From IMG/VR virus record IMGVR_UViG_3300023035_000005, positions 64,001 to 128,000 of that record: a DNA stretch of 64,000 bases, one strand, 5' to 3'. How positions within the stretch are numbered: the stretch's first letter is position 1; every line of letters starts with the position of its first letter. A program made the translations under genes and the position numbers. The stretch is from a virus. The notes beneath the pieces were generated by a model. That model saw nothing but the letters and a program-made list of their open reading frames with translations, was not told the DNA's origin and searched no databases. Below are positions 40,043 through 40,661 of the stretch, one piece after another.

Positions 40043-40661
40043 CTAACATACATATGTAGCACATATATAACAACATCTCCCGCGTATAACTCAAATCTCT
40101 CTACCAGCTTCCAGGCAAGTAGGACATCTTTTTCCTGGTAGTGTACCTGAATAATATATCTCACTATCTGGATTATTAAGTAACTCACTGCCTGGATTAT
40201 TAAGTAACTCACTACCTAAATTATTAAGTAACTCAATATCTAAATTATTAAGTAACTCGGTACCTAAACCACCAATAATAAATGTTATTATTATTATTAA
40301 TAATAATAATAATAATAAAATAAAAATAAATTTAAGATTAGATTGTAAAGGTAAACTTACAAAAGCGTGAGGCTTAGGTGGGCTACTTAACGCTCATTCT
40401 AAGGAAGGGTAACTTCTATTTAATAAGGCTTGTAATGTATCAGTATAATATTGAGGAGTCATTCAAGGATATCTACTTGCAGATTTTCCTTCTACTAATT
40501 GTGCATATACAATGTATAAGAATAATCAAGCAGCTATAACACTAACTATAGATCCAAAACTACTTATCAAATTTCATCCCGCAAAAGCGTCAGGATAGTC
40601 ACTAATTCTTCTAGGCATTCCTTGTAAACCTAAGAAATGTTGAGGGAAGAAAGTAAGATTA
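40043..40661 (-). CDS. cox1: Cytochrome c oxidase subunit 1, terminal exon (first copy) with 98-aa extension
   Basis: [26 protein letters not shown]...SLPLQS then open to TAG 40043. Confidence 0.9.
40161..40256. repeat. 4 x 24-bp tandem repeat coding ELLNNxxx
   Basis: tcactatctggattattaagtaac and three variants. Confidence 0.92.

Follow-up and report, generated by a model that had tools for sequence, protein, structure and literature searches.

The 64,000-nt stretch of DNA analysed here (positions 64,001 to 128,000 of the IMG/VR virus record IMGVR_UViG_3300023035_000005; hereafter, the window) is AT-rich fungal mitochondrial DNA in which TGA is read as Trp and cox1 lies on the minus strand. 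The frame of the last cox1 exon runs on past its LPLQS motif for 98 codons, and this tail raises the question whether it is an accident of the reading frame or a real part of a respiratory subunit. The tail is very probably a genuine, selected, Cox1-borne module that consists of a transmembrane (TM) helix, a linker and a Cys4 ribbon. By its sequence the ribbon is assigned to a large undescribed family of Pezizomycotina with both nuclear and mitochondrial members.

Reading frame and architecture of the Cox1 tail

On the minus strand, with genetic code table 4, 98 codons are open past LPLQS (40339-40046) up to a TAG stop (40043-40045). The frame is unbroken with the last cox1 exon (40340-40660, ending in SLPLQ), which was read directly and is the same as a second, distal copy of this exon up to the Gln codon. 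The corresponding open reading frame (ORF) at 40043-40618 has 191 residues counted from its first ATG. Translation of 40043-40339 gives exactly the string which the initial annotation had reported as an extension of Cox1 in frame past LQS. The tail contains no Met, therefore it could be made only as part of Cox1, an unusual start aside.

The tail is built of three parts. Residues 1-26 (40262-40339) comprise S/NLK and a hydrophobic helix (core 40274-40330), which is delimited by Tandem Repeats Finder, Kyte-Doolittle hydropathy (19-residue mean 3.7), the AlphaFold 2 (AF2) model and conservation in the relatives P0003, P0004 and P0006. The flanking charge of the helix is +2 before it and -3 after it. 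Most of its coding sequence consists of (TTA)n/(ATA)n runs, among them (TTA)5 and (TAA)11 at 40285-40329. The helix is followed by an acidic Asn-rich linker (40139-40261) of four 8-residue repeats (T/S)ELLNNxx, recognized from a 24-bp tandem array at 40160-40268 (4.5 copies, 88% matches), from repeats in relatives and from the AF2 model; the net charge between helix and ribbon is -5. Both the microsatellite-coded helix and the 24-bp repeat linker of the initial annotation were recovered by Tandem Repeats Finder, and in relatives helix and repeats are conserved beyond microsatellite noise.

The third part is a Cys4 mini zinc-ribbon (40046-40138) with the predicted ligands C72, C75, C90 and C93, defined by HMMER matches, alignment, the AF2 model and codon positions. 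Its Cys motifs read CPTC-x14-CYIC, which corrects the spacing of 13 residues given initially. The single TGA codon of the tail (40091-40093) encodes the near-invariant ribbon Trp, W83, as follows from the table 4 translation and from the codons of homologues. The ribbon forms the extreme C-terminus: the tail ends with ATYVC, five residues past C93, and the same holds for nearly all members of the family.

Conservation of the tail behind Cox1

From base composition, the probability of 98 open codons is about 0.0017. The shuffled tail remains open in a fraction of 0.00095 (20,000 shuffles), and of the stop-free runs in all six frames of the window only 0.9% are at least 98 codons long. The pattern CxxC-x12-16-CxxC has its sole instance within the six frames of the 64 kb in the tail. 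Run X1 is possibly the source sample itself; its contigs agree with 39905-40272 and 40343-40613 in every letter. Runs X6 and X7, from two other organisms, hold the tail with 12-13 substitutions and 21 gap letters; its length change in organisms A and B amounts to 21 nt (7 codons), a multiple of three. A stop directly after LQS, which the initial annotation had named as evidence against its reading, is present in none of the contigs from X1, X6 and X7. The two exon substitutions listed in contigs of other organisms fall on third codon positions, as read from the coordinates, and the sole one listed in the tail (40069) replaces Tyr by His at one of the variable x positions of the second CxxC.

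A word-indexed search with the 98-residue tail returned one near-identical JGI protein and two diverged ones, P0003 and P0004. At least five diverged relatives (P0003/P0100, P0004, P0006/P0011 and P0013) carry the tail as an in-frame continuation of Cox1; it is about 50% identical there, as against about 95% for Cox1, with in-frame indels only. The features kept in these diverged tails are a Lys followed by the hydrophobic helix and IG(D/E), three to four degenerate TELLNYSG repeats, and the ribbon. In P0100 the tail belongs to a 233-residue ORF which spans the upstream exon, the intron being absent. Close Cox1 relatives without the tail terminate at SLPLQS plus 0-20 unrelated residues, in line with the initial remark that a zinc ribbon is foreign to normal Cox1. 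The tail is thus an addition found in a subset of a clade.

The ribbon family

A phmmer search against 1.84 billion representatives gave 78 matches at E≤1e-3 (for example P0005 with 7e-10 and P0010 with 1.2e-8), nearly all of them on tail residues 60-97. In a 50-sequence alignment C72, C75, G87, C90 and C93 are invariant, and P68, G69, P73, G79, W83, V84 and T95 are conserved in at least 90%; all these residues are present in the window tail. The ligand register is CxxC-x14-CxxC. Thus, from the six Cys initially drawn into one finger, the four predicted ligands are kept in the homologues, and C89 (the first of the CC pair) and C98 (the last one) are variable. The family signature, PGxRCPxC-x14-CxxC(A/G)T(Y/P)V, covers 31 residues and is located at the C-terminus.

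The window tail has no Pfam match at E≤10, and no nuclease domain (LAGLIDADG, GIY-YIG, HNH or another) is found in it by Pfam. Relatives of the tail give sub-threshold Pfam matches only (Nairovirus_NSm, E 0.0025, 18.3 bits with a cut-off of 27.4; zinc_ribbon_6, E 0.0082), so that the gathering threshold of a curated zinc-ribbon family (Zn_ribbon clan, DZR, rubredoxin-like, HMBD) is never reached. An NCBIfam search of the ribbon gave nothing. With the alignment profile, six matches are listed among all PDB chain sequences at E≤10, none of them significant; the best is Rpo12 (E 0.056), and L37Ae is also present.

Structure prediction, as the initial annotation had suggested, gave a confident AF2 model of the ribbon, with a predicted local distance difference test score (pLDDT) of 96-98, as well as of the helix (94-96). 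The pLDDT of the linker is 52-65, and this segment is probably flexible. In the AF2 model of a nuclear member the ribbon has pLDDT of about 90 and the N-terminus is disordered. The ribbon models consist of short strands and knuckles. Fold searches did not extend this: Foldseek runs against PDB (both models) and VIA (first model) showed nothing above noise, the domain being small and the list of the first model being dominated by its long helix. Domain fusions and structure searches provided no functional clue. The ribbon does not belong to the twin Cx3C/Cx9C type of Mia40 substrates, since its motifs are CX2C spaced by 14 residues and are modelled as strands; import of the nuclear members into the intermembrane space is considered as a working hypothesis. 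Altogether, the initial interpretation of the tail is supported, with the corrections to its Cys pattern.

Several resemblances were considered and dropped. Kinship with desulforedoxin, rubredoxin, the I-TevI linker zinc finger or the DNL/Zim17 finger had no tool support. The same applies to homology with COX5B/Cox4, which is absent among the PDB profile rows at E≤10, an absence with which a remote relationship would be compatible.

One nuclear-type member, P0014 (130 residues), carries two ribbons in tandem. The motif RLGIEQLP at its N-terminus recurs in nuclear members of Botryosphaeriales and Capnodiales.

Nuclear and mitochondrial members

Related loci were sought with a 15-sequence subset alignment, and at least 31 were collected as a sample. 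Nuclear members are hypothetical proteins of 50-57 residues on Mb-scale contigs (e.g. KAI1156279.1 of Nemania diffusa); their hosts include Nemania diffusa, Akanthomyces, Alternaria, Pyrenophora, Bipolaris, Plenodomus, Hortaea, Diplodia and many more. The nuclear ribbon of Pleosporales, VPGRRCPACLERGDTVWVIPGKCCPQCGTPVN, is almost invariant. Mitochondrial members have a GC content of 25-33% and TGA codons, and Cox1 is not their only carrier. In the P0042 cluster (12 members, contigs up to 46 kb) Cob is continued by an extra hydrophobic segment, a 112-residue acidic linker and the ribbon. In L002 and L004-6 the ribbon follows Nad4 and an acidic linker of 55-60 residues. Ribbons with Cox2 pieces occur in P0065 and P0072, and small ORFs of TM segment, linker and ribbon in P0061, P0070, P0074 and L024-27. 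A second copy of the host 3' end was not found where the ribbon joins Nad4.

One Nad4 cluster formed at 90% identity mixes tailed (551-556 residues) and tail-less (490-492 residues) members. In L023 (8330-10126) the Nad4 ORF and the ribbon tail share a frame with one stop between them, at a position where the close relative P0037 has Glu; the same Nad4 tail includes the Cox2 N-terminus-like piece DAPNGWGLFFQD. L030 (2569-3207) is a chimeric ORF that begins with the remains of a Cox1 end (PKPHPFSSLSLQS), goes on with a piece resembling the Cox2 N-terminus, in which two TM-like segments lie, and closes with a ribbon which has lost an invariant Cys (GKCYPQC). The contig holds further duplicated cox1 and cox2 fragments. 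The mixed cluster, the stop in L023 and the Cys loss in L030 mean that the module is gained, kept and sometimes lost.

The codons of the ribbon differ much more than its residues. Between the window ribbon and the nuclear exon L001, 23 of 31 residues are identical, with 23, 27 and 11 identical nucleotides at codon positions 1, 2 and 3. Mitochondrial L024 and nuclear L011 share 30/31 residues and only 8/31 third positions. Within the mitochondrial set, L023 and L024 are identical in 29/31 residues, and their codons differ at 14 of the 28 conserved residues. Among the loci listed, W83 is TGA in all strict-motif mitochondrial copies carrying it (window, L023, L024, L025 and L027) and TGG in all nuclear copies. 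The GC content at third codon positions (GC3) is about 0.1 in mitochondrial copies versus 0.5-0.7 in nuclear ones. Such codon patterns, together with TGA for Trp, imply that the mitochondrial copies are read with the mitochondrial code. They point to long-term purifying selection on the translated protein in both compartments.

Proposed origin and direction of transfer

The mitochondrial ribbons pair with different nuclear lineages. Those of the Cox1 tails are 71-90% identical to the Xylariales-type nuclear ribbon (Nemania, L001) and 42-61% to those of Pleosporales and Hypocreales. The Cob, Cox2 and TM ribbons are 81-97% identical to nuclear ribbons of Pleosporales and about 50% to Xylariales. 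In a maximum-likelihood tree of 31 columns, a branch with support of 97/84 joins Dothideomycete nuclear and mitochondrial ribbons. The approximately unbiased test rejects a tree in which all mitochondrial ribbons form one clade (delta log-likelihood 53.7, p 1.6e-17).

In both classes the nuclear genes are interrupted by a phase-0 intron at one shared site, five codons ahead of the first Cys. It was read directly in L001, L003 and L011, and the remaining nuclear loci have AG or a stop at the intron position. The mitochondrial tails cross this site and match the end of nuclear exon 1: INYSGT-APGKRC compared with VVNMSGT/APGKRC (slash, intron site). Given the lineage pairing and the reading across the intron site, the most economical explanation is at least two transfers of a spliced copy from nucleus to mitochondrion. 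Intron-less nuclear copies would have entered mitochondrial DNA at least twice and then adapted to mitochondrial codon usage. The complete scenario is offered tentatively, as possible though far from assured. According to it, a nuclear microprotein gene was copied in spliced form into mitochondrial DNA at least twice (once Xylariales-like, once Pleosporales-like), re-coded from TGG to TGA and grafted on Cox1, Cob, Nad4 and Cox2, so that a Cys4 module would be displayed on the intermembrane-space face of respiratory complexes.

The movement may also have gone the other way, which we find rather doubtful. An old Pezizomycotina mitochondrial gene of TM segment and ribbon would have been copied once to the nucleus, where it lost the TM segment and gained the intron; a dual-copy state would have followed, and the pairwise likeness would come from co-evolution with a shared partner. 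Transfer from mitochondrion to nucleus is the common direction, and filamentous ascomycetes have dual nuclear and mitochondrial copies of atp9. The full mitochondrial codon adaptation (GC3 of about 0.1, TGA for Trp) argues for long residence, and free-standing ORFs of TM segment and ribbon do exist (P0061, P0070, P0074). However, mitochondrial ribbons are 81-97% identical to nuclear ones of the same lineage and only about 50% to mitochondrial ones of the other lineage. With the single mitochondrial clade rejected, parallel change at a dozen positions in two compartments would be required. The family is, moreover, sporadic in mitochondria and broad in nuclei. The opposite direction is the less parsimonious of the two.

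Proposed topology and mechanism

In all tethered forms the last hydrophobic segment is flanked by positive charge before and negative charge after it, and is followed by a linker of 40-112 residues with a net charge of -2 to -17 and then by the ribbon. The extra TM-like segment is present on Cox1 and Cob and absent on Nad4. The C-termini of Cox1 and Cob lie in the matrix; in complex I structures the C-terminus of Nad4 faces the intermembrane space after helix 14. From the positive-inside rule and these sides of the host C-termini it follows that the spacer and the ribbon would come to the intermembrane space on Cox1, Cob and Nad4 alike. We give this placement, which is read from charges and hydropathy, about an even chance of being right.

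Since the tail lacks a start codon and has TGA at the conserved Trp, it is proposed to be made on mitochondrial ribosomes as the C-terminal end of Cox1. The helix, which has Lys towards Cox1 (the matrix) and Asp/Glu at its other end, would take the C-terminus across the inner membrane. The flexible acidic spacer, repetitive and variable in length, would then sit in the intermembrane space together with the ribbon. The four Cys may bind one metal ion, most likely Zn and possibly Fe, or may form two disulfides. The result would be a small rigid module, a tethered version of the soluble nuclear-encoded protein, perhaps serving as a docking or assembly element. The tail may remain on Cox1 or be clipped. 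Taken as a whole, this explanation of the tail is considered probable.

The duplicated last exon and its second tail

The last exon, together with about 360 nt of the group I core that precedes it, is present twice, proximally at 40338-41016 and distally at 38889-39515 (repeat D1, 300 nt at 99%), with no difference between the exon copies as far as the Gln codon of LPLQ. The group I core before the proximal exon (40651-41013, minus strand) matches the full Rfam model RF00028 with 60.5 bits. The distal duplicate (38889-39505, minus strand), defined by repeat D1 and alignment, comprises a second core (39202-39505, full RF00028 model, 51.2 bits) and a second copy of the last exon, and is also present in organisms A and B. 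In frame with the distal exon copy is an alternative tail of 335 residues (37883-38888, minus strand), a competitor of the ribbon tail for the C-terminal position on Cox1. Homologues of this ORF are 64-83% identical; one of them, P0104, is also fused to a Cox1 exon, and another, P0106, has a decayed GLPLHSK remnant. In the organisms of X6 and X7 the distal core and ORF are present as well (26 substitutions and 18 gap letters, a multiple of three), hence the duplication and both tails are common to at least three taxa. Just downstream of the distal ORF ARAGORN finds its only tRNA in the window (37666-37740, minus strand; anticodon UAA, Leu).

Because the last exon is duplicated and its distal copy carries another conserved tail, the ribbon-tail exon is one of two candidates for the 3' end of the mature mRNA. 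The tail may be coding and conserved, but the working 3' end of cox1 may be supplied by the distal core and exon copy, with the 335-residue tail or after processing; the proximal exon and its tail would then be removed in a long intron, or would yield a minor isoform or a separate product. This possibility is regarded as unlikely, though several observations speak for it. Both copies have a full-length match to the group I core and an identical exon, and the duplication is common to at least three taxa. Homologues of the 335-residue ORF keep 64-83% identity, one of them being joined to a Cox1 exon in another relative, and the tRNA that would punctuate the transcript comes after the distal ORF. 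RNA run X24 is a soil sample with a relative of about 93% identity, not this organism; one of its contigs joins the exon to the 335-residue ORF and spans 37890-39067. The spliced form 40658/42239 in RNA-library contigs fits the exon boundary and is assignable to neither exon copy alone. On the other side, P0100, a relative without this intron, has the ribbon tail behind its sole visible cox1 end. The proximal core has the higher Rfam score, and a transcript reaches the proximal 3' splice site first. Finally, a tail under purifying selection and without a start of its own must be translated somewhere.

A Logan contig of 3952 nt from a distant relative is listed for both P0009 (ribbon ORF) and P0106 (335-residue homologue). 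The ribbon ORF and the 335-residue homologue may thus share one short contig, which suggests that the two tails have long been neighbours.

Some elements near the two exon copies may be mentioned. A GC-rich hairpin (40015-40042, minus strand) lies immediately 3' of the TAG stop of the ribbon tail and could possibly be an mRNA 3' element or mark a 3' end. Organisms A and B have two substitutions within it, the fold of the 111 nt around it (39940-40050) is not significant (z -1.6), and no bacterial-type terminator or promoter was found near the tail stop. Further 3' of the tail, a GC-rich palindromic cluster of 208 bp (39733-39940) is missing in organisms A and B with a clean joint (39732/39941); it is an insertion polymorphism of a GC element. 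In the proximal core there is a 60-nt GC-rich insert (40716-40775), a variable peripheral element of the ribozyme, which is missing from the distal core; organisms A and B have a different string of 29 nt in its place. The window also contains GIY-YIG and other intron ORFs, group I introns and GC-rich palindromic clusters.

Remaining alternatives and points of doubt

The cassette of TM segment, linker and ribbon might be a mitochondrial parasite or addiction-type module riding on essential genes, with selection serving the element, e.g. through biased mitochondrial inheritance, and not respiration. Its patchiness among close relatives, its many different hosts (Cox1, Cob, Nad4, Cox2), its ties to chimeric ORFs made from gene fragments (L030, and the L023 Nad4 tail with DAPNGWGLFFQD) and its decaying copies in L023 and L030 are all in keeping with such a hitch-hiker. 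However, a highly conserved stand-alone nuclear family with a conserved intron over several classes argues for a cellular function, the cassette has no linked nuclease, transposase or repeat termini, and the Nad4 fusions are made without a duplicated host 3' end. Altogether this appears quite improbable.

Neutral read-through, in which a breakpoint after LPLQ removed the cox1 stop, the frame ran to a chance stop and the Cys pattern arose from TGT-rich simple sequence, is hardly credible and already contradicted: microsatellites and a tandem array do encode helix and linker, the second half of the ribbon DNA (TGTTGTTATATATGTGCTACATATGTATGT) has a low-complexity look and the distal copy diverges precisely where the duplicated block ends, but chance would give 98 open codons in about 0.1-0.2% of cases, several relatives have the tail in frame with about 50% of its residues identical, some 80 homologues share the four Cys, the Gly and the Trp, and the synonymous versus non-synonymous pattern is that of purifying selection.

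Several points weigh against the preferred account, in which a translated Cox1 tail of nuclear origin carries a metal-binding ribbon into the intermembrane space. The placement depends on the side on which Nad4 ends, and it misfits P0072, with an N-terminal ribbon followed by a TM segment and Cox2, and L030, with two TM-like segments and a degenerate ribbon. Metal binding by the four Cys is suggested by the motif and the model only. The tree is built on 31 columns, and co-evolution or convergence of nuclear and mitochondrial copies could apply. The contigs of X24 have no cover on 39461-40215 and are not informative either way on tail expression. With the last exon duplicated, the ribbon isoform may be of minor importance or be removed by splicing. 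Some lineages do without the tail: there are close Cox1 and Nad4 relatives that lack it, and there is an in-frame stop ahead of the ribbon in L023 and a lost invariant Cys in L030.

Significance and comparison with known systems

The core subunits of the respiratory chain belong to the most conservative proteins known. Should the tail be produced, complex IV of these fungi would bear a new built-in appendage; should the complete scenario of transfer also hold, the module would be a new accessory element of the respiratory chain that can be encoded in either genome. Mitochondrial genomes generally give up genes to the nucleus and are hardly known to acquire functional ones; if the proposed direction is true, this would be a rare functional import of a nuclear gene into mitochondrial DNA. 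The occurrence of soluble nuclear and tethered mitochondrial forms offers a handle on the function of a fungal family which is spread over many plant-pathogenic and saprotrophic species. It also calls for caution in annotation: cox1, cob and nad4 ORFs of fungal mitogenomes that look too long may be real.

In the literature searched, including papers on fungal mitogenomes (PMC5626475, PMC6140425), no such tail or module is mentioned. Within that literature the combination has no match: a family without a model, coding in two genomes, repeated grafting on core subunits and apparent nuclear import.

The fold class itself, a Cys4 knuckle ribbon, is ordinary. The Cys4 zinc ribbons of archaeal Rpo12, L37Ae and bL32 likewise have two CxxC knuckles of the CPxC/CxxCG flavours, about 14-20 residues apart, and short beta strands. 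They are the best matches of the tail, still non-significant (E 0.056; Foldseek E above 4). In contrast to them, the tail is the C-terminus of a mitochondrially encoded membrane protein, and its pattern PGxRCPxC...VWVIPG...CxxCGTPV is in no Pfam or NCBIfam model. COX5B (yeast Cox4) is a nuclear-encoded, zinc-binding, Cys-ligated subunit of complex IV, which is imported separately and located on the matrix side. As a small Cys zinc module in complex IV, it demonstrates that the enzyme can accommodate a structural zinc site; its ligand arrangement is different and no homology is claimed.

In Pleosporales cox1 and cox2 are adjacent or fused (PMC5626475). Such fusions also place extra in-frame sequence at the end of a subunit, which means that C-terminal additions to Cox1 are tolerated. 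However, they join two standard subunits, whereas the tail is a foreign domain with nuclear homologues and its own membrane anchor. Homing endonuclease genes are mobile ORFs that bring a replacement 3' end for the host gene. Similarly, the 3' end of cox1 is duplicated here and each copy is continued by a different in-frame ORF; but the tail has no nuclease motif and the Nad4 fusions have no duplicated host end. It may be that the duplication of the cox1 end belongs to the 335-residue ORF rather than to the ribbon. The ORFs of plant cytoplasmic male sterility are membrane-anchored products recombined from pieces of mitochondrial genes and other sequence, and are young, species-specific and usually harmful. 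The Cox2 N-terminus-like pieces in L030 and in the Nad4 tail of L023 resemble them. Unlike these ORFs, the ribbon module is conserved as a protein over class-level distances, and in two genomes.

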